Below are positions 12,188-43,527 of a DNA stretch of 56,193 nt, one piece after another. The stretch is from a virus (taxonomy: Duplodnaviria > Caudoviricetes), in IMG/VR virus record IMGVR_UViG_3300033141_000787, positions 1-56,193 of that record, one strand, 5' to 3'. The position numbers and the translations under genes are program-made. Positions within the stretch are counted from its first letter, which is position 1. Each line of letters starts with the position of its first letter. Below the pieces are notes generated by a model that was given only the letters and a program-made list of their open reading frames with translations, was not told where the DNA came from and made no database searches.

Positions 12188-15100
12188 ATGCCTGAGAGCT
12201 ACGTAGATATAGATAGACTATTAGAGCATACTATAATAGGGTACGACTATCCTAATAAGAAGTATGTGCCTGATAGGTCATTCTTTGTAGACGCTTTTAA
12301 TACAGTTGCAGCAGGCGGACTTGATGCTGTGGAAATGGTAGCTAAAGCTTTATCTTCTGCTGGTATACCTGCTGAGGGCGTAGTTAATTCAATACGTCAA
12401 TATAAAGCTTCAGCTACTTGGGACGACCCTTCAAGACAGTATTATGAAGATGGTGCAAGACGTACTGTAATGGATATATTACGCTCTGCGTCTCAGAGTC
12501 TTGGTACTCGGAGTATTGGTATACTTGCCGGTGGACTTGCAGGATTGGTTACAGCAGGCCCTGCTGGTATGGTAGGTGGAGCTGCTATAGGAGCTACCGC
12601 TACAGGAGGCCCTGTATACGGCTTATCTACCTATTATGATTTTATGGAAGACGCCAAGAATCATGGAATACCTATAGATACAGTACGTAATGATGCTATC
12701 CTTGCTGCCGTTACTGAGGGTGGTTTGGAAATGGCTTCAGACCTTATATTTGGTAGGTTGATGGGTCTATTTGGCAAAAGCGGGAAAGAGGCTACTAAAG
12801 GATTTATGAAGTCATTAACTGAAAAGACAACAGTATCACAGTTTACTAAGAAGTTCTTACTGTCCTATGCCAAGGTTGCATCAGAGGAAATACCTACCGA
12901 GTTAGCACAAGATTACTTTGGCTATCATATTAGAAAGAATGCAGGATTGCCGGTAACTACTGACCTTGCCCAGAGCCTTAAACAGACCGCCGTAGTTACC
13001 GCTGGTACATCAGCCTTGTTTGCTCTTGGTGGTCTTGGTGGTTTAGAGCTTAGGAAGAAATTTATAAAGTCTCAGATTGATGCAGCGGCGGTACTTAGTG
13101 AGATAGCAGATAATCCAGAGGCGGAACTTACAGAGCAGCAAGTAACTAAACTACAAGAAGTTAATCAGGTACGGGCATTAGCAATAGATGAGTATAATAA
13201 GTATAAGGAAGACCAGGAAAAAGGCCGTAGAACTTTAGTTGACTTAATAGCTATAGCAAGTAGGTTAGGACCTGTACTGCTTTGGGACTTAAAGTATAGA
13301 CCGGTTAACGCAAAGGGAGAGCCTGTATTAGGATTAGCCTTTAAAGGACGTGGAGTTGCCACATTACCACACCCTCTTGTAGTAGGTCATGAGATTGGCC
13401 ATAGGATGGTTGACCATAAACTGCTTGATTACAATAAGCCTGGAATACCTAAAAATGAACTTATACGTGTAAGCAGACTACACAGGAAGTCGGTATATAG
13501 AGGTATGTATCCAGATGCACCTCAGTCAGCTATTAATAAAGAAGTTGATAAACGTGCATATAAAGGACAGGAAGACCAGGACTCAATCAGTGAAGCTATC
13601 GGAGATTTTGTAGGGCTGTACCTATATATGCCTGAGATAGTCAGTAAGATGGCTCCAAGAACATCTGAAGTATTAGGGCCTCAAATTGACAGAATAACAC
13701 GCATTCCTCAAGACTATGCTGAAACCAAGGCTATGATTACTGAATATAGTGCACGCATAGCCAGAAGGTTTGTCGGCTTTGCCATGGAGGTTAAAGCCAA
13801 AAAGCAGGCAGATAAGCCATTTGCTGCACCTGAAGAACCTACCTCGAAAGACGTATTTAATGAGGAGCTTAATAATAGGGTAGGCCCTCAAGCGTTCGCT
13901 GAGGATATAGCTGATGAATTTGATGCTGTATCTAAAATCATTCAGGACGAGTTAGGAATAACTGATGATGCTAAATTAGGCTTCATGGCCAATACCATTA
14001 TAAAGCGTGGAGGATTACCAGAAGAAGCTACCGCACGTAAAAGATATTTACAGACTGTCGAATGGGCTGCAAGTAAGGTAATAAAAACTCAGAAGAAAGG
14101 TATTACTAATCTGTTTAATCCGTGGGTATCTATACGATATGGCTTTGCTGACCTTGAAGCTAAGACTGGTGTAGTTGGTTTACATAAGGACGCCAAGAGC
14201 TTTATGTATAAAACCGGGCAGTCCCATTATAATAGCAGTACACGTATAGATAGAATGTTCAGAGATAATGATATTGACCCCAGTAAGTTAGCTGATGACC
14301 CAGAGACTATTAAACAGGTAGTAGATTGGCTTTACGAGAAGGACGATAAGAAACGTGAAGCTATAACTTCAAAAATGAGCCCTTACGCATTAAAGGTAGC
14401 CAAGGTAGTACATAATGAATTGCAAGGTGAAACAGCTACTAATATAAGAATATCAAGGTGGCTTATGTGGCGTAGTATACCACGTAAGACTCTTGAGGAA
14501 TATCTGCAATTATATCATAGAGTTACAAGTAATAAAGCCTCACGTGAAGATATAAAACGCTATGGTAAGCTCCAAGGATATTTTGAGTCAATACTTCCTC
14601 CTGACTTAAAACCGGAATACGGAGTAGCTACAAGAGGGGCAAACTCAGTAATTATAAACCGTGGACTTACCTTAGAGGAGGCTAAAAAGGAAGCTGGAAA
14701 AGATAAGAAAGCATATAAGGTAGTACAGCTAACATCAGGACTTGAGGAATTATTAGACGCCGATGCTGTATATGAATCAGAGGGTATGGAAGGTTTACGT
14801 AAGTTCCTAAGTACTAAAACTTGGGGTACTCGTAAACATTACTATATGAGTAGTATAGAGCTTGATAATGCGTTAGAGCAGTTTGTTGGTAATATAACCT
14901 CGCCAGGAGTCTTAGGTAAGCATACAACGCCATCAGCACGTCCTGGAGCAAAACTTAGGGAATCTCATACAAGAACTACAGAAGGAATACCTAAAGACGC
15001 TGAAACATTCTTACCTGACCTGTACAACCATATTCAGCGTGCTGCTATGATAGCAGATGTTGGTATTGATATGTTGAAGCTGTCTGACAAGTTTATGACA

Positions 15101-16507
15101 GCAATGCCTAAAACCAGAGATGCTAACAGTCAAATACGTGTATTTAAAAGATTTGTGATGAATGCTATGGGGCTTGATGAATCTGCTCCGGTAGCTGTAA
15201 GAACAGTTGAAAAGATTAATAGATTCTTCTGGCAGACTTACCCACTTGCAATAAGCCGTATATTATGGTACTCATTCAGAAACTTGGCACAGAATATGAT
15301 TGCCGGCGGACAGTTAAATATCGGGGAGGCTGTCAAGTCAGGTCTCACAATAGCTACGTCTGGGCCAAGCGACTTGTTAAGAAAGCACTTCTCACTCAAC
15401 TTTAAATCTACTATATCACAGAAATTACCTATCTTCAGGCACTTTATGATGATGGAACATGATGTAGTGGATAAAAAATATAAACGGAAGATGACAAGAA
15501 TACTCGATACTTTAGGGCAAGCTATACCATTCTCAGATGAAGTTAACAGAATGCTATTGTTCCCTATAGTACATGATATAGCTGAGCGTAATATCAATGC
15601 TTACAAAGAGGGTAAGATTAATTTTGAACAACTGGCTAAACGTGCCGGACTTAATAACTTACACCCACAAGAGCTATTAGATATACAGGATTTACTTAAA
15701 CAAGGTAATTACGAAGATGCCATATTTGAGATAGCTGCTACCAAGGTAGCTAATACCCACTTCAGATATAGAGTAGCTGAACGTTCAGGAGTAGAACAGC
15801 ATAGAACTGCAAGACCATTAACAGGATTATATAACTGGCCTCGTGGACTTGTTGAATCTCTGTACTACAATGGAATAAAGCCATTTGTTGTAGGTATGGA
15901 AACTAAAAATTATAATGTGGCATTCTCAGGATTAACAGCACTTACTAAAGTACTTGGCGGTATGTTTGTAGCACGTGAACTGCTCAAAAAGATATTAGGT
16001 AAAAAAGATGAATATGGAGCATACGATACCTTTAATACTATATTCGGATACGCTCCTGGTAGTGCCGGACTCGGATTAGCAATGAGTGTATTTGAAGATT
16101 TCAAACGTGCACATGATTACGCTCGTGATGGTAATATAGATAAGGCATTCTTTACCTTATTAGATAGAGCAGCTTACCACTTGCCTTTAATAGCTGATAC
16201 TATTAATGCTTATGAAGCCTTACATGATAGGCGTGGAGTTAAGATGATGAGGCTTCTTGAAGCTAAAATTTATAAAGCCACTAAAGAGCCCGGTAAATCA
16301 GCTAAGAGGACTGCCGTAGAGAAATGGCAGCATATACTATTTGGTACTGAGGAAATACCACAATCTGAGGAGGCCAGGAAGCTGGCCAGAGAAAGAGAAA
16401 AAGCATTAAGGAAATTATATAGACAGTTAGGCATAAAATCTCCACTACTGAGTGCTGAAAATGCACTTGATATAGATAAATTGCTTAGACGATATAGTGT
16501 TATATAG
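12188..16507 (+). CDS. Large internal virion/DNA-ejection protein with a HExxH zincin-like motif
   Basis: 1439 aa; Gly/Ala-rich hydrophobic hairpin near the N-terminus; VGHEIGH and downstream SEAIGDF; last gene of the late arm. Confidence 0.6.
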   Translation: MPESYVDIDRLLEHTIIGYDYPNKKYVPDRSFFVDAFNTVAAGGLDAVEMVAKALSSAGIPAEGVVNSIRQYKASATWDDPSRQYYEDGARRTVMDILRSASQSLGTRSIGILAGGLAGLVTAGPAGMVGGAAIGATATGGPVYGLSTYYDFMEDAKNHGIPIDTVRNDAILAAVTEGGLEMASDLIFGRLMGLFGKSGKEATKGFMKSLTEKTTVSQFTKKFLLSYAKVASEEIPTELAQDYFGYHIRKNAGLPVTTDLAQSLKQTAVVTAGTSALFALGGLGGLELRKKFIKSQIDAAAVLSEIADNPEAELTEQQVTKLQEVNQVRALAIDEYNKYKEDQEKGRRTLVDLIAIASRLGPVLLWDLKYRPVNAKGEPVLGLAFKGRGVATLPHPLVVGHEIGHRMVDHKLLDYNKPGIPKNELIRVSRLHRKSVYRGMYPDAPQSAINKEVDKRAYKGQEDQDSISEAIGDFVGLYLYMPEIVSKMAPRTSEVLGPQIDRITRIPQDYAETKAMITEYSARIARRFVGFAMEVKAKKQADKPFAAPEEPTSKDVFNEELNNRVGPQAFAEDIADEFDAVSKIIQDELGITDDAKLGFMANTIIKRGGLPEEATARKRYLQTVEWAASKVIKTQKKGITNLFNPWVSIRYGFADLEAKTGVVGLHKDAKSFMYKTGQSHYNSSTRIDRMFRDNDIDPSKLADDPETIKQVVDWLYEKDDKKREAITSKMSPYALKVAKVVHNELQGETATNIRISRWLMWRSIPRKTLEEYLQLYHRVTSNKASREDIKRYGKLQGYFESILPPDLKPEYGVATRGANSVIINRGLTLEEAKKEAGKDKKAYKVVQLTSGLEELLDADAVYESEGMEGLRKFLSTKTWGTRKHYYMSSIELDNALEQFVGNITSPGVLGKHTTPSARPGAKLRESHTRTTEGIPKDAETFLPDLYNHIQRAAMIADVGIDMLKLSDKFMTAMPKTRDANSQIRVFKRFVMNAMGLDESAPVAVRTVEKINRFFWQTYPLAISRILWYSFRNLAQNMIAGGQLNIGEAVKSGLTIATSGPSDLLRKHFSLNFKSTISQKLPIFRHFMMMEHDVVDKKYKRKMTRILDTLGQAIPFSDEVNRMLLFPIVHDIAERNINAYKEGKINFEQLAKRAGLNNLHPQELLDIQDLLKQGNYEDAIFEIAATKVANTHFRYRVAERSGVEQHRTARPLTGLYNWPRGLVESLYYNGIKPFVVGMETKNYNVAFSGLTALTKVLGGMFVARELLKKILGKKDEYGAYDTFNTIFGYAPGSAGLGLAMSVFEDFKRAHDYARDGNIDKAFFTLLDRAAYHLPLIADTINAYEALHDRRGVKMMRLLEAKIYKATKEPGKSAKRTAVEKWQHILFGTEEIPQSEEARKLAREREKALRKLYRQLGIKSPLLSAENALDIDKLLRRYSVI

Positions 16508-16512
16508 CAATC

Positions 16513-16821
16513 TTAATTCCTAAGTTTATCAAGTTTTTCTTTATGCTCAATCATTAAATTGAGCAATCTCTTATAGATACCATGAGGTAGGTTTTCCTGC
16601 ATCCATGTAAATATCTTCTTAGCTTGATATTCCAGAAACTCAGGGCGTCTTAACTGCTCATAATCAGTAGACTTCATATATATATGAAGATTCCTGGACT
16701 CTGTTGGAAGCTCAGCAGTACTATATCCGTACTTACGCTTTAGATTCCTCGGCAGTTTGCATAATCCAGCCATTTCCAACACTATATCGTCTTTTATTTC
16801 ATGTCTTCTTGACTTACTCAT
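16513..16821 (-). CDS. Hypothetical protein
   Basis: Coupled to the upstream ORF by a TAATG overlap. Confidence 0.6.
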   Translation of the reverse strand: MSKSRRHEIKDDIVLEMAGLCKLPRNLKRKYGYSTAELPTESRNLHIYMKSTDYEQLRRPEFLEYQAKKIFTWMQENLPHGIYKRLLNLMIEHKEKLDKLRN

Positions 16822-30691: not shown

Positions 30692-30925
30692 CTATAGTTT
30701 TATCTCCTTTAACCAATCATCAAGAGGGCAGTCATTAGGTATAGTATTACTATATACTTTATGCCCAGTTATCTTACAATAAATATGCTTTACATTATTA
30801 GTTGCGAATGCACCCCCTATGTATGTCATAGTTTCTTCTCCCTCAACTATCTTATAAGGGCAGTCATTACATGTTCTAACTACTATATATGCTTTCTTCA
30901 TGTTATAGTCCTTTCGCCCTTTCAT
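30692..30925 (-). CDS. Hypothetical Cys-motif protein
   Basis: CNDCPY...C...IPNDCPL. Confidence 0.6.
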   Translation of the reverse strand: MKGRKDYNMKKAYIVVRTCNDCPYKIVEGEETMTYIGGAFATNNVKHIYCKITGHKVYSNTIPNDCPLDDWLKEIKL

Positions 30926-31106
30926 TCTCTGTTCTTATAACTTTTAACCTTTGACCACATTCACGACATCTAAATATCTCAACAGTCCGGCCAATATTAT
31001 CCCCTTCAATTGTTGTCTTACAGGTCGGGCAAGTATATATGGTATATATATGTGATGCTTCTTTATAAATTATTTTTACTGGCTTTGCTTTCTTGGTTAC
31101 CTTCAT
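30903..31106 (-). CDS. Zinc-ribbon protein
   Basis: CPTC...CRECGQ; AAGGAG RBS. Confidence 0.65.
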   Translation of the reverse strand: MKVTKKAKPVKIIYKEASHIYTIYTCPTCKTTIEGDNIGRTVEIFRCRECGQRLKVIRTENERAKGL

Positions 31107-31131
31107 ATTACTTAACTCCTTTCTTTACTAT

Positions 31132-31259
31132 AGGGGCAACGGGCTACTATTTGGGAATTACTATCAATTCCCCAAAGTCATAGGGCTTTTATATTGCGGT
31201 AGCCCGACACACTCGATAGCGGTATGTAGCATAACCGTCAATTTTTACACGTTGCCCCT
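31132..31259 (-). ncRNA. Structured element A (multibranch, closed by an acceptor-like stem)
   Basis: AGGGGCAACG/CGTTGCCCCT outer stem; GGGCTAC/GTAGCCC and TTTGGGAATT/AATTCCCCAAA inner stems. Confidence 0.6.
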
Positions 31260-31513
31260 GTTTCTGTTATTATCAACTCAACAACATCAAGTTTATCCAT
31301 AATCCTATTTATCCAACTCCTTAGGTTTGTTTTGCCACTTATAACTTTTGCGTTTTCTTCCGTGCCAGTTAAAACTATTCCTGAAGTTCCTTTGTTTGAA
31401 GAATAAAATCCCGTTGTCGGCAATATCTGAGTATTAAATTCCTCGCCTTCTCCGGCAAAATATAAACCATTAATTTTTATTATGTATTTCTTCATTTTAT
31501 TCACCGCCATCAT
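31238..31513 (-). CDS. Hypothetical protein flanked by 14-bp direct repeats
   Basis: TATAGGGGCAACGG at 31129 and 31527. Confidence 0.6.
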   Translation of the reverse strand: MMAVNKMKKYIIKINGLYFAGEGEEFNTQILPTTGFYSSNKGTSGIVLTGTEENAKVISGKTNLRSWINRIMDKLDVVELIITETGATCKN

Positions 31514-31526
31514 TGTTCTTCTTTGT

Positions 31527-31558
31527 TATAGGGGCAACGGCAAAGACTCGAATTTTGC
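31527..31558 (-). repeat. tRNA-like 3' fragment B (T-arm plus acceptor 3' strand)
   Basis: - strand GCAAAA-TTCGAGT-CTTTGC-CGTTGCCCCTATA parallels the 3' end of element C. Confidence 0.65.
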
Positions 31559-31599
31559 AAAACAAGTATTCGCAATTAAGAGAAATATAATCATTCGCT

Positions 31600-31893
31600 T
31601 CATTTCTCTTCCCCCTTCCTATTAAACCACATTATAAAAATTATACAACATGCCGCATGCGCCAAATGTGGTAATCCAGATTCATTATCTTTTATTTCAC
31701 CGGATTGATACGCTTTTATATGTCTCATCATTGCAGCAAAATATCTGTTCTCCGCATTCGGAACATGTTGCCATTGATTGGGAGCATATTTTATTGCGCC
31801 AAAACTTAATACTTTTACAATCTCCTCCACCTGTTCAAGTGGGAGCAAATCCCACCTCGGTTTACCATTATCGCTTTTTCGTCCCTTTTTCAT
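31600..31893 (-). CDS. dATP/dGTP diphosphohydrolase domain protein (DUF5664-like)
   Basis: GRKSDNGKPRWDLLP, FGAIKY..NQW, RYFAAMMRH, DNESGLPHLAHA. Confidence 0.85.
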   Translation of the reverse strand: MKKGRKSDNGKPRWDLLPLEQVEEIVKVLSFGAIKYAPNQWQHVPNAENRYFAAMMRHIKAYQSGEIKDNESGLPHLAHAACCIIFIMWFNRKGEEK

Positions 31894-32019
31894 ATTTCTC
31901 TCCTATCTTAATTGCTCATAACTGCTCAATTAATTCTTTTCCCATTTCTATTAGTCTCTCCTTTTATTTTTTTTTTTATAAACCAACTAATTCCACCAAA
32001 TAATATTAGTTGGAAATAG

Positions 32020-32271
32020 TTACCCCATTATCCTGAATCTAACCACATTCTTAATTATCAACTCTCTACCATCTTCTAATAAAATAGAAGCATCTGTTTT
32101 ACCATGCCCACAACAACTTGCTTCTGTTTTGATGTTCGCAGCATTCAAAGCAGCAACTATATCTGCAATACAGAAATCAATATATCGTACTCGCCCGTTA
32201 ATCGGCATAGGGGTTTGACATTTATAAGTTCCAACGCCCGAACATTTTTTAAGTCTTATATTCTCTGACAT
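32020..32271 (-). CDS. Hypothetical protein with D.CIADIV.ALN...T.ASCCGH motif
   Basis: GAGGAG RBS directly after an attC-like site. Confidence 0.65.
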   Translation of the reverse strand: MSENIRLKKCSGVGTYKCQTPMPINGRVRYIDFCIADIVAALNAANIKTEASCCGHGKTDASILLEDGRELIIKNVVRFRIMG

Positions 32272-32285
32272 AGATACTCCTCAAA

Positions 32286-32363
32286 AATTATAACAAAACG
32301 TTGCATCCGACTGTGCCACGCTGCGCTTGCACAGTAGGCAAGCTTAATTTTAGCCCGTTAAAT
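32286..32363 (+). mobile_element. attC-like site (degenerate)
   Basis: TAAC-AAAAC-GTTGCATCCGAC-TGTGC..GCACAG-TAGGCAAGCTTAAT...GTTAAAT. Confidence 0.55.
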
Positions 32364-32574
32364 TATCCCTCAACATTATTAATCGTTCTTCCAATTTGCT
32401 GTCGTCCTGTAAAATAAAATCAATAGCATCTAATATTTCACCCCTTAATAACCAATCACCCTTTATGCTTTTCACGCAACCATAGTTGCCAGCGGTATAT
32501 CTACAAGGGGCTAAATCATTCAAGCCGACCGCATCAGCGGCGCAGCTCTTTGTGTCTTCATTGGTTGTAGCCAT
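32350..32574 (-). CDS. Hypothetical protein starting inside an attC-like site
   Basis: The N-terminal AVGLNDL is encoded by the attC arm. Confidence 0.5.
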   Translation of the reverse strand: MATTNEDTKSCAADAVGLNDLAPCRYTAGNYGCVKSIKGDWLLRGEILDAIDFILQDDSKLEERLIMLRDNLTG

Positions 32575-32628
32575 ATCATTTGCCCTTTCATAGTTTACTC
32601 TGGCGGCGGCTTAATTCCGTCGTTATAA
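32509..32628 (+). mobile_element. attC-like site
   Basis: ATT[C]AAGCCG[A]CCGC pairs with GCGGCGGCTTAAT, leaving two extrahelical bases; then TCCGTC-GTTATAA. The R'' box is damaged. Confidence 0.7.
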
Positions 32629-32997
32629 TTTTGGTTCAAAGTAAACACAAGTATCATCTTCTTTTTTATTTACTACAGAATCTGGAATAGCAATACATTT
32701 TCCAGTTGAACCGTTACCACTCCATCCATTAGAACAAAAAACACCATAATCATGTCTGAAATAAATACAATTCTTGCATTTTCTTTCTAATGGCTTTTCG
32801 TGACAAAGCACATCAGGCCAACTTAATATTTTCTTTAAACGATTACCAGCTTCTGCTGCTTCTTTTGCATTTTTTCTTGTTTTACCGTGAGTTGCGATAT
32901 GTTGTTTACCACTCTCATCAACACCAAAAATTACAATATGTGTTAAATTTAAATTTTTACGTATTTCCTTGATTTGCGAGATTTTTATTTTCATCAT
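32623..32997 (-). CDS. Hypothetical Cys-motif protein whose stop codon overlaps the attC core
   Basis: AGGAGG RBS; CKNC...C...C; ends TAA-C. Confidence 0.65.
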   Translation of the reverse strand: MMKIKISQIKEIRKNLNLTHIVIFGVDESGKQHIATHGKTRKNAKEAAEAGNRLKKILSWPDVLCHEKPLERKCKNCIYFRHDYGVFCSNGWSGNGSTGKCIAIPDSVVNKKEDDTCVYFEPKL

Positions 32998-33043
32998 ATC
33001 CTCCTGTTTTAACTGTATTTTTCAATTTCTTTATCAAAGCTGT

Positions 33044-33165
33044 GAGGGCAACGGCAAGGACTTGAACCTTGCATATTAACCTCTCAAACCCGCCGCACGG
33101 GAATAATGATGGAGTCGAACCATCTTGCGGTTTCAAAGTGTCTGCCGTTCCGCCACGCTGCCCCC
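33044..33165 (-). ncRNA. tRNA-like RNA C (non-canonical, no standard anticodon arm)
   Basis: GGGGGCAGCG/CGTTGCCCTC stem, Leu-like D region TGGCGGAACGGCAGAC, T-arm GCAAGG-TTCAAGT-CCTTGC, extra T-loop hairpin GATGG-TTCGACT-CCATC. Confidence 0.65.
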
Positions 33166-33167
33166 AA

Positions 33168-33722
33168 TTACTTACCCAAACGTCCTTTTAACCATTTCAA
33201 ATTTCTCAGTGCAGCATTGTACGCTGTGATGTAACTATTAAAATTTTCTGGCATGCTATCATCCTGCGCATCAATCGCACATAGTATCTTAAAATTTTCT
33301 ACAGCAAAACTTGGTGATGGTATTATAAATGTTTTCACTACGATGTCAGTATCGCCTATCATTTGTATCCAACTCCTGTGAAAAAATACTGGCGTGATAA
33401 TAGGTAATGTATCAGTTTGGCCATTCGGTATTATCATGGTGATATGTTCCGTATCATTTGGCATTCCTGATTCCAGATGGAAACCAAGTTTTTTAATGAC
33501 AGTCCCATCCTTACTTTCTACAGGCTGTACTGCCTGTTCTTCCATTATCAGTATACCATAGTCAGGTATTATTTTGTGTGGTCTGTATTTGTGGTATTGG
33601 TATATTGCATGAAAGCCAACATTCCCGGATAATTTAATTACCAATCGCTTCTTTGCTAACAGATACTTACCATATGTATGGAGGATGATTGGTGATATTT
33701 TCTCTTCAATCCTCAAGCACAT
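33168..33722 (-). CDS. Hypothetical protein
   Basis: AAGGAGG RBS; MCL start and GFH motif seen in phage small proteins. Confidence 0.6.
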   Translation of the reverse strand: MCLRIEEKISPIILHTYGKYLLAKKRLVIKLSGNVGFHAIYQYHKYRPHKIIPDYGILIMEEQAVQPVESKDGTVIKKLGFHLESGMPNDTEHITMIIPNGQTDTLPIITPVFFHRSWIQMIGDTDIVVKTFIIPSPSFAVENFKILCAIDAQDDSMPENFNSYITAYNAALRNLKWLKGRLGK

Positions 33723-33780
33723 TTTGTTCCTCCTTATTATTATTAAGCCTGATTAATCTTTCTTAGTTGGAAGAAGACAC

Positions 33781-33978
33781 TCAATGTTTAGCTTTATCTA
33801 TTTTAACTGTATAAATCCAAAATCTTGAAAGCCCATTAAGGTTTGTCTTCATTTCAATATTAATTATTTTCTCGTTATCCCCAACAAGTTCAGTAATTGT
33901 CTTGTTGAGAATTTTGTCTATAGTATTAAGGTCACATTCTAACCAGCTTTCGCTCCTAATAATGTTTACTTCTTGCAT
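33781..33978 (-). CDS. Hypothetical protein
   Basis: GAGGAG RBS. Confidence 0.6.
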   Translation of the reverse strand: MQEVNIIRSESWLECDLNTIDKILNKTITELVGDNEKIINIEMKTNLNGLSRFWIYTVKIDKAKH

Positions 33979-34014
33979 TATTATCTCCTCTTTTTAATTC
34001 CTGCCCCCGAATAA

Positions 34015-34188
34015 TTATTCTTCTAAGATATTTCTAACTATTTTGGCTAATGCTGCTATAGCTGCTCCTTGGTTGCCAAAATATTCAGCAACAGTCTTGC
34101 CGTTAAATGGTTTCCCATCAAAGGCTTTTGCATCAGCTTCCATGTCAGCTTCTATCATTTTCAAAATCTCTATTTTGCTTCTTGTCAT
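34015..34188 (-). CDS. Small protein (57 aa, not in the ORF track) flanked by 13-bp direct repeats
   Basis: AAGGAGG RBS; MTRSKIEILKMIEADMEADAKAFDGKPFNGKTVAEYFGNQGAAIAALAKIVRNILEE. Confidence 0.7.
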   Translation of the reverse strand: MTRSKIEILKMIEADMEADAKAFDGKPFNGKTVAEYFGNQGAAIAALAKIVRNILEE

Positions 34189-34210
34189 TCTAACCCTCCT
34201 TTATAATTAC

Positions 34211-34350
34211 TATTCCTGCCCCCGCTCTTGACGCTTGGCATTCGGCTTTTTACATCTTTGCTGATGGTTAATCAACCACGGAGGATTAATGCCCCTAATA
34301 TAGATAAGGAGGCAACTCATATAAAAAGAACGTCAGGGCAGGAATAATTA
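34211..34350 (-). ncRNA. Structured intergenic element D
   Basis: TATTCCTGCCC/GGGCAGGAATA outer stem, with TGACG/CGTCA inside. Confidence 0.55.
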
Positions 34351-34506
34351 CATATATCGATACCCTATATTGTAATAGTTTACTAAAGCAAGCTGCTGCA
34401 TAACGAATATAGCGTCTCGTATGGATAGTTTAGATACTTGTAGCATTAGATTTACAGTAAGTAGCTGTTCTGGTGTGATAGGTATGTATATATGTTCTTT
34501 CATCAT
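34348..34506 (-). CDS. Small protein (52 aa, not in the ORF track)
   Basis: GGAGAG RBS directly after a sigma70 promoter. Confidence 0.5.
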   Translation of the reverse strand: MMKEHIYIPITPEQLLTVNLMLQVSKLSIRDAIFVMQQLALVNYYNIGYRYM

Positions 34507-34520
34507 TGCTCTCCATGCGT

Positions 34521-34549
34521 AATATAATGAGTTATATTGTTAATGTCAA
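34521..34549 (-). promoter_or_regulatory. sigma70-type promoter at the head of the accessory island
   Basis: - strand TTGACA-17 bp-TATATT. Confidence 0.7.
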
Positions 34550-34707
34550 GTACTTTATACAATATTCTCACGTAGTAATTTCATGACACGTATACACTCT
34601 TTCGTATTATCCTCTTATCTTGCTTGGTTATTGCTTTAATACTTTTCATAATGCTCTCCTTTTAGTCTGTACTTATTAATTAATTACTTTACAATACTGC
34701 TTAGCAA

Positions 34708-35103
34708 TCATAAGGTTGCTATAAAGTCTCTCCACTTGTGAAGCATTTGTATTCTTTCATTACGTACCTTAGTAATATTATCGTCATCCCCAAGTATTAA
34801 GGTATGGAAGTCTATTGACTTAGAAGTTTTAGTTGCTAACCACATATTACATGTAGTTTCTTCAAGTATATACCATAAACAATGATAACATCTAATAACA
34901 TAACTCGGAACATTTTGTAATGGTGGAGTCAGTGTACACTCTTTATCCCGTATTAGTTTATCGGCATGACATATTGGGCAATGCCTATTATAAGATTGCT
35001 TTTCATATATTGAAAGCTGTGAATTAATGGCATCCAAGTATATATGTTTATACTGCCTTAATACCCTACGCTTATGTTTGCTAAGTTCGTTTATATTTTT
35101 CAT
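34708..35103 (-). CDS. Cys-rich protein, paralog of 37025-37504
   Basis: CxxC...CxxCLW..E.TTC..WL...RI.ML..W. Confidence 0.65.
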   Translation of the reverse strand: MKNINELSKHKRRVLRQYKHIYLDAINSQLSIYEKQSYNRHCPICHADKLIRDKECTLTPPLQNVPSYVIRCYHCLWYILEETTCNMWLATKTSKSIDFHTLILGDDDNITKVRNERIQMLHKWRDFIATL

Positions 35104-43168: not shown

Positions 43169-43392
43169 AAACAACCGCTTAGCATTTTATTACTTTATAC
43201 TTGTATATTACATAAAAAGGCCAATTTTAGGCCATCTATCCGATTTTTGTCCAGCCCGTCTTTATTCGTTCGGGCATAATATAGACCGCTTGCGGCTTCG
43301 GCAAGATGCCCGCTCCGATGTTCTGCCCGGTCGATTCCAGCCCGTGTGGTCGATTCCAGACCATGCCGTAAGTCCTTGAAAAAGAAGGCTTT
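43169..43392. promoter_or_regulatory. IHF-like sites and repeated enhancer/pac-like boxes
   Basis: AAACAACCGCTTA (43169) and TTTCAAGGACTTA (- strand, about 43369-43381) resemble WATCAANNNNTTR; GTCGATTCCAG occurs twice with related boxes nearby. Confidence 0.45.
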
Positions 43393-43527
43393 ATGAAAAA
43401 TAACGAAAATCTAATATACGAAAACCCGATTTTACGGGGGCGGGTGTTGTTATGGTATATCCCTCTCTTAAAACATATATATATTTACATTAACATTCGT
43501 ATCTGCTAAAATATATTATTTATTTGC

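Follow-up and report, generated by a model that had tools for sequence, protein, structure and literature searches.

The window analysed here is the whole of IMG/VR virus record IMGVR_UViG_3300033141_000787, a complete 56,193-bp genome that has direct terminal repeats, and the subject of this analysis is an array of small genes on its minus strand in which several intergenic positions are occupied by structured elements, here called A, B, C, D and D'. The genome encodes a family-A DNA polymerase, a P4-type primase, an exonuclease, a Sak4-like annealing protein, a terminase and a portal protein, and the phage is of the lytic type. The array had originally been predicted to be an integrase-less series of about ten single-gene cassettes, punctuated by folded sites and placed behind a consensus sigma70 promoter. 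Ten co-oriented open reading frames (ORFs) of 52-184 aa do run from 34506 down to 30903, each with a Shine-Dalgarno-like sequence ahead of it, and they are separated by nine gaps of 36-170 nt that sum to 892 nt; the early genes nearby are mostly packed, with gaps within ~25 nt. The promoter was also confirmed: it is the top intergenic minus-strand match within 28-44.5 kb, and no other intergenic site scores 11/12. Sigma70-like matches overall are at chance level (49 versus 45.3 expected), and element D contains a 9/12 match.

To place the array in context, a single relative was found (56,737 bp; primase identity of 88% in amino acids and 79% in nucleotides) in primase scans of IMG/VR and metagenome contigs, and comparisons throughout are between these two genomes, which makes all covariation counts tiny. 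Beyond this relative, the scans gave one further match at 27% identity; in a collection of 5.8 billion proteins the next-best primase after the 88% match was 48% identical, and GenBank phages held no closer phage, with all 936 matching records below 60% identity and those listed at 37-39%. Core genes of the window phage and the relative are 75-83% identical in nucleotides and 45-57% identical at four-fold sites. The features of the locus are given in Table 1.

Table 1. Features of the array, in the order of the proposed leftward transcription (window coordinates; aa, amino acids; nt, nucleotides)
Feature	Position	Strand	Description
sigma70-type promoter	34521-34549	-	TTGACA-17-TATATT; score 11/12; both hexamers identical in the relative
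g2, 52 aa	34348-34506	-	first gene past the promoter; 45% aa identity over 51 aa with the relative
element D, long irregular hairpin	34211-34346 (about)	-	arm TTCCTGCCC...GGGGGCAGGAA; conserved 3' half
g3, 57 aa	34015-34188	-	window-specific; D and D' on its flanks
D', collapsed copy of D	33997-34017	-	9 nt preceding D plus D's 12-nt 3' arm
g4, 65 aa	33781-33978	-	window-specific
g5, 184 aa, ORFan	33168-33722	-	one GCGC site inside
element C, tRNA-Leu-derived, tRNA-like	33046-33178	-	conserved 5' and 3' modules, variable middle
g6	32623-32997	-	window-specific, C-to-B block
g7	32350-32574	-	window-specific, C-to-B block
g8	32020-32271	-	window-specific, C-to-B block
g9, 97 aa, dATP/dGTP diphosphohydrolase N-terminal-like domain	31600-31893	-	PF18909, E 1e-34; phrog_801
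GCGC island	31659-33269		holds every GCGC site (5) of the 56-kb genome
element B, solitary 3' module	31519-31559	-	T-arm part like C; tail like A
g10, 91 aa	31238-31513	-	window-specific; last 7 codons and stop within element A
element A, 126-nt structured element plus tail	31121-31258	-	GGGGCAAYGTG...CCGTTGCCCC frame as in C; conserved tail TATAGTAAAGAA
g11, 67-aa zinc-ribbon protein	30903-31106	-	adjoins A in both phages

The region from the primase to the exonuclease was compared with the relative by blastn, and the alignment comprised the promoter (78%), D (85%), the ends of C, A, g11 and one further gene (71%), and nothing else. The edges of homology were sharp: it starts precisely at A's first G and ends with the final bases of C and of D. 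The syntenic positions of A and C agree between the two phages. Among the array genes, a syntenic homologue in the relative was found for g2 and g11 only. Seven of the eight genes from g3 to g10 had no tblastn match there, and the eighth, g5, had a weak, non-syntenic match elsewhere (27% over 142 aa). These data show that, in this two-genome alignment, the modules are the only conserved sequence amid fast-changing accessory genes. The alignment bears directly on the original prediction, according to which breakpoints of gene gain and loss should fall at the elements: the edges are sharp at elements and gene content is not fixed, but one insertion or deletion falls at a ribosome-binding sequence, AAAGGAG, and a region free of elements is equally variable, as set out below.

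Five of the predicted folded elements were recovered. Measured against dinucleotide shuffles, D folded with a z score of -3.5, C with -2.2, B with -2.6 and A with -3.5 and -3.2, and D', a solitary end fragment, was verified as the collapsed copy that it had been called. The genes had been described as mostly separated by folded elements; the elements themselves are real, but they stand at only 4-5 of the 9 junctions. The statement that stop codons touch the elements held for three genes, the stop of g10 lying within the 5' arm of A and those of g2 and g5 lying 2-4 nt ahead of D and C. By contrast, the three spacers that had been called attC-like (32272-32349, 32575-32622 and 33723-33780) gave z scores of +0.4, +0.7 and +0.07 and have no counterpart in the relative, and that part of the prediction was not confirmed. 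The first of these spacers was also considered as a fragment of the 5' module of C and was not counted, its 10-nt identity being close to chance in 4 kb by our own estimate. Another spacer, 31894-32019 between g8 and g9, gave a z score of -2.8. It holds a 9-pair hairpin at 31985-32012, CCAACTAAT...ATTAGTTGG, followed by a run of 11 A, and a 10-nt word of the same spacer, TTCCAACTAA, has a second copy in the spacer between g4 and g5.

The resemblance to an integron had to be weighed, since an array of attC-like single-strand hairpin sites, at which a host integrase would insert and excise single-gene cassettes behind a common promoter, was the form that the original prediction suggested. Integron arrays and the window share a promoter, promoterless small genes with folded sites between them and variable gene content; the single strong promoter, the position of g3 between D and D', the AAC...GTT within element ends and the conserved elements that enclose differing genes could all be understood in this way. 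The ends of attC sites follow the consensus RYYYAAC ... GTTRRRY, 40-130 nt apart. Nevertheless, 0 end pairs were found on the two strands of 30800-34800, where shuffled sequence gave 0.34 on average. A search of the complete genome with PF00589 (the IntI-type tyrosine recombinase) returned nothing at E<=0.1, its control having matched in 14/14 genomes; six-frame searches of the window for integrase, resolvase, Y1 transposase, HNH and GIY-YIG families were also negative. Tyrosine and serine recombinases and Y1 transposases are therefore not found in the window, just as the original prediction had stated that no recombinase gene was recognised. Furthermore, A and C fold into multi-branched, tRNA-like structures rather than simple imperfect hairpins, the elements are heterogeneous and occupy only 4-5 of the 9 junctions, the three attC-like spacers are unstructured, and the exchanged units are mostly multi-gene. 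The window array, which belongs to a phage of lytic type, is not an integron, and a mechanism of that kind acting here is highly improbable.

Conservation is strongest in A. The element proper (31258-31133) is identical to its counterpart in the relative at 123/126 positions (97.6%) apart from a 10-nt indel in an unpaired stretch, or 90% identical when the indel is counted, and this identity far exceeds the core-gene background. In the predicted fold, which is multi-branched, 41 of 42 pairs are invariant and the remaining one changes from A-U to G.U; the other two substitutions fall at unpaired positions. All one-sided changes in the predicted stems of A and C (4/4) keep the pair through G.U, which is true of the sense strand only, with the consensus structures taken from RNAalifold, which chooses the best-fitting fold, so that the structures are fitted to the data. 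Three of these four changes lie in the closing stem of C. The sense strand of C, and likewise that of B, folds better than the antisense strand.

Element D shows a similar pattern. Its 3' half is 85% identical to that of the relative, and in the consensus fold the closing stem has 13 invariant pairs, including 2 U.G pairs on the sense strand, and an inner hairpin contains one double change, from A-U to G-C. The duplex of D comprises ~20 near-continuous pairs in the window and a 13-14-pair closing stem in the relative; a T7-type RNase III signal has about two turns of duplex with an internal loop. The two versions of D differ by indels of 27 nt and 1 nt, and because of these and the 10-nt indel in A, coding potential was rejected for both elements. 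D' is not present in the relative. The end motif CCGTTGCCC occurs in 3 copies (0.07 expected) and the end motif GGGGGCAG in 4 copies (0.61 expected), 3 of which lie in 33158-34223.

Element C consists of a 5' module (33178-33140) that corresponds to an acceptor strand and a D arm, a middle of ~65 nt, and a 3' module (33074-33046) that corresponds to a T arm and an acceptor strand. The two modules are 90% (5') and 97% (3') identical to those of the relative, whereas the middle is unrelated between the phages and has no anticodon arm (a 5-pair stem and a 7-nt loop) at the expected place; it forms a second T-arm-like hairpin in the window and a 7-pair hairpin in the relative, and the latter looks as though it includes a decayed anticodon loop. 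C begins with a 17-nt D-arm word, which matched 90 IMG/VR stretches; in 67 of 82 matches (from the 80 loci that were listed) it lay within a tRNA-Leu called by ARAGORN and spanned the D arm together with the last part of the acceptor strand. The D arm of C is of the class II (tRNA-Leu) type and keeps its GG, the T loop keeps its TTC and the T arm is canonical (CAAGG-TTCAAGT-CCTTG), with one extra base separating the T stem from the acceptor strand. Judged by these matches, C derives from tRNA-Leu. It shares with phage tRNA-Leu genes the identical 17-nt D-arm word, a TTCRAGT loop in the T arm and an acceptor core of 7 pairs, but it differs from them in the lineage-specific insert, the extension of the acceptor core to 9-10 pairs, the absence of an encoded CCA and the loss of the anticodon arm. 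A search of 30800-34800 against Rfam at E<=5 gave four weak matches, the sole meaningful one being tRNA-like (33096-33048). The possibility that C is a genuine tRNA gene was rejected because relaxed ARAGORN searches that allowed introns disagreed on its identity, calling Gln and Pro in the window and Cys, Leu and Ile in the relative; at standard thresholds neither ARAGORN nor Rfam called C as a tRNA. Rfam at gathering thresholds gave 0 matches in the whole window, and ARAGORN at default settings found 0 tRNA genes in the window and 0 in the relative.

It is also conceivable that the elements are decaying, functionless remnants of a former phage tRNA cluster, their high identity being due to recent recombination between lineages rather than to selection. 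Such decay would fit the lack of a canonical tRNA gene in either genome, the missing anticodon arm of C together with the discordant relaxed ARAGORN calls, and the existence of the fragments B and D'. The gene adjoining A is relevant as well: g11 is 85-86% identical to its homologue in nucleotides and 78% in amino acids, so that nucleotide identity exceeds amino-acid identity, and its identity at four-fold sites is raised (71%, n=17), which looks like recent exchange followed by fast change of the protein. However, A is 97.6% identical against 85% for this adjoining gene, one frame is kept around three different interiors (C of the window, C of the relative, and A), every one-sided stem change preserves pairing, and the GG of the D arm and the TTC of the T loop, which would form the elbow of a tRNA, are retained. 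Conserved ends around a replaced middle, as seen in C, are moreover unexpected for a decaying pseudogene. Taken together, these points make mere decay unlikely.

Element B, which is not present in the relative, joins two kinds of sequence. Its T-arm part matches C at 24/28 nt (86%), with one compensated and one broken pair when the T stem of C is compared with it, and its tail matches the 3' end of A and the sequence preceding the next ribosome-binding site at 20/22 nt, where 0 such matches were expected. By this composition, B is chimeric, C-type in one part and A-type in the other. The interior of A is unrelated to that of C in spite of their common frame.

Because the shared 3' module (CCGTTGCCCC followed by TATAG...) is found in three contexts immediately upstream of a ribosome-binding site, each time ahead of a different gene, it might be a promoter ahead of g10 and g11 that is read by an RNA polymerase or sigma factor specific to the phage. 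We give this very little credence: there are three copies only, all within one early operon, the pairing partner of the module is a conserved 5' strand, and a T arm precedes it in C and B. A search for a single-subunit (T7-type) RNA polymerase gave no match, and its control was silent too, which makes the result uninformative.

Outside the relative, searches of IMG/VR, INPHARED and genome contigs found no copies of any element. The first pattern scan for the common frame was too loose and returned at least 119 stretches, none of which resembled the region by blastn; a tighter scan returned the relative and 6 others, and these 6 were judged to be chance matches, as they show no interior similarity and come from loci of 37% to 65% GC. 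Scans of IMG/VR with a 3' word of C and an interior word of A returned the relative only, the scan of genome contigs gave one match that is not a tRNA, and blastn of the region, A and C against INPHARED gave nothing but one 24-nt match at E 0.4. These results weigh on the view that the elements are non-autonomous, resembling miniature inverted-repeat transposable elements, and invaded both genomes with the terminal inverted repeats GGGGCAACG/CGTTGCCCC. Inverted-repeat ends, sharp boundaries of homology and a near-identical A in both phages would be expected of such elements; dispersed copies, on the other hand, were not found in the scans with termini and interior words, A and C sit at syntenic positions in both phages, no target-site duplication was seen, and transposase and homing endonuclease families were unmatched. 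An invasion of this sort is very unlikely.

The repeated ends of the elements frame the genes that differ. The g3 unit is flanked by the direct repeats D and D', the unit of g6-g9 by the 3' module of C and B, and the g10 unit by B and the 3' module of A. The units that appear to have been swapped are mostly multi-gene blocks. With moderate confidence, we interpret the locus as a hyperplastic early region that carries a small, lineage-specific family of conserved, partly tRNA-Leu-derived RNA modules, the repeated ends of which serve as homology patches for modular shuffling. Leftward early transcription would start, at least in part, from one host-type promoter, and host enzymes of RNA maturation (RNase P/Z or RNase III type) would bind or cleave the folds in the polycistronic early RNA, thereby separating or stabilising cistrons or freeing small stable RNAs. 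In C the acceptor stem, D arm and T arm, the elbow seen by tRNA-processing enzymes, are retained and the anticodon and variable region are lost; A has an extended acceptor-stem frame like that of C around another interior, D is a long irregular hairpin, and B and D' are end pieces. Besides a primary role of the modules as RNA, their repeated ends of 12-28 nt would act as patches at which general or annealing-protein recombination swaps, inserts or deletes blocks of genes, no site-specific recombinase being involved. The modules probably work as RNA, through processing, stabilisation or small-RNA release, and the suggestion in the original prediction that the same structures may process the mRNA is plausible.

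The original prediction further held that single-gene cassettes are shuffled at hairpin sites. The conserved anchors, the differing genes between them and the flanking repeats support shuffling, as does the GCGC island described below, which points to recent import, but the units are mostly multi-gene and the elements are heterogeneous. Host integrases or the phage's own annealing proteins had been named as the means of exchange; a Sak4-like annealing protein and an exonuclease are indeed present, and the site-specific, integron-like alternative is not supported, there being neither a recombinase nor an attC consensus. There is no new kind of recombination system here.

Several observations weigh against modular shuffling at RNA modules. 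In the packed early region at 36.5-41.7 kb, which is free of elements, 13/16 ORFs (>=40 aa) are unmatched in the relative; this region turns over equally fast, and the modules are therefore not needed for gene flux. The relative has an extra small gene right after A that is bounded by the repeated ribosome-binding sequence AAAGGAG, with no hairpin. Because every gene between the anchors differs, breakpoints at the anchors are near-unavoidable and constitute weak causal evidence. The GCGC island described below spans C, and its ends need not lie at elements. Part of the identity of A may reflect recent exchange rather than constraint, since the adjoining g11 has the raised four-fold identity given above. 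Counts of covariation from two genomes are tiny and RNAalifold favours the structure that fits best; the transcription, cleavage and stability of the element RNAs are all matters that we infer. Finally, C in its predicted form is no canonical RNase P substrate, having a 9-10-pair acceptor, no CCA and an extra base.

A bolder version of the idea can be built on the frame that encloses three interiors. The tRNA-Leu-derived frame would be a portable RNA scaffold from which host tRNA-maturation enzymes excise the cargo, and the ends of the frame would double as homology patches. We consider this version quite improbable. If it were true, the phage would make small, stable RNAs that might serve as regulators or as decoys for tRNA-directed host defences, and the array would amount to an RNA-defined cassette system without a recombinase.

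In T4-type phages, the elements named PeSLs (promoter-early stem-loops) consist of a strong sigma70 promoter and a terminator stem-loop, are present in many copies, and mediate modular shuffling, in which mini-circles arise from exchange between neighbouring modules (Arbiol et al. 2010, PMC2839356; Comeau et al. 2014, PMC4122927). PeSLs and the window have in common short conserved intergenic modules repeated among small, non-essential early genes of a hyperplastic region, differences between close relatives that map to modules (here with one relative), direct repeats of modules on the flanks of genes, and exchange by homologous rather than site-specific recombination, which for the window is our inference. 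Unlike PeSL regions, the array has one promoter, and no element bears a promoter or a T-run terminator: no terminator-like site was found on the minus strand at any element, and none of D, C, B and A is followed by a T run. The window modules are also tRNA-derived or large multi-branched folds, in 3 full and 2 partial copies only. PeSLs are the closest known analogue, but by the defining features of that family the array is not a member of it.

Two other phage systems are precedents for a role of the modules as RNA. The early polycistronic mRNA of T7 carries RNase III processing signals (PMC3867540), and these are structured and intercistronic and lie in the host-polymerase early transcript of a lytic phage, a description that the window elements share by position only; unlike those signals, D measures 100-135 nt and is not a compact hairpin, and A and C are multi-branched. 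In T4, the small stable RNAs RNAC and RNAD, whose roles are unknown, are transcribed from the tRNA region (PMC3014915). Like the window elements, they are small RNA-like elements with tRNA-type sequence among small early ORFs; the T4 RNAs, however, adjoin functional tRNA genes, and none were found in the window phage. The ends of RNAC and RNAD pair in the manner of an acceptor stem.

If the favoured reading of modular shuffling at conserved RNA modules is correct, module-based shuffling of accessory genes reaches past the T4-type phages into an unrelated and barely sampled lineage, and tRNA-derived RNA folds stand where T4-type phages have promoter-terminator units. The locus would also be a concrete case of a tRNA gene that has become a scaffold with an exchangeable interior.

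The region had also been described as breaking an apparent avoidance of GCGC, and this was upheld, as every GCGC site of the genome lies there. The genome holds 5 sites against 29 expected, with 5 against 5.2 expected within the 1.6 kb of 31659-33266 and 0 in the other 54.5 kb; none of 200,000 random placements was equally tight, and by our own estimate from span and length the chance is ~3e-6. Four of the five sites lie in the g6-g9 block (31600-32997, minus strand). Other words are avoided as well: GATC occurs 3 times (146 expected), CTAG 4 times (160 expected) and CGCG once (17 expected), and the island is still without GATC and CTAG. In the relative, GCGC is not avoided (24 versus 36.5 expected), GATC and CGCG are (6 versus 121 and 0 versus 20), and CTAG is avoided much more weakly (109 versus 184). 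The differing avoidance suggests different restriction pressure or hosts for the two phages, and the island is most simply read as having arrived recently from a phage free of selection on GCGC. Restriction-site avoidance can in this way date gene imports within a single phage genome. Inside the island, g9 was found to be a stand-alone N-terminal domain. A search of the 5.8-billion-protein collection with g5 returned its self-match alone, and GenBank phages gave nothing; for g11, the zinc-ribbon matches in Pfam are weak and below the cut-off.

A few observations concern other parts of the two genomes. In locus L003 of the relative, positions 13290-13400 hold a startless, apparent partial copy of the C-terminal part of the relative's own gene at 12789-12991, possibly a leftover of recombination, and positions 15996-16523 hold a 175-aa ORF with an NPPY-type motif of the kind typical of adenine methyltransferases, for which no syntenic counterpart was seen in the window. 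In the structural module of the window phage, a 1439-aa protein (12188-16507) had no Pfam, PHROG or PDB sequence match, and a 990-aa protein of the window had no PDB sequence match. A non-coding stretch of 97 nt at 43379-43475, near the point where leftward early and rightward late genes diverge, is 86% identical to the relative and is probably regulatory.

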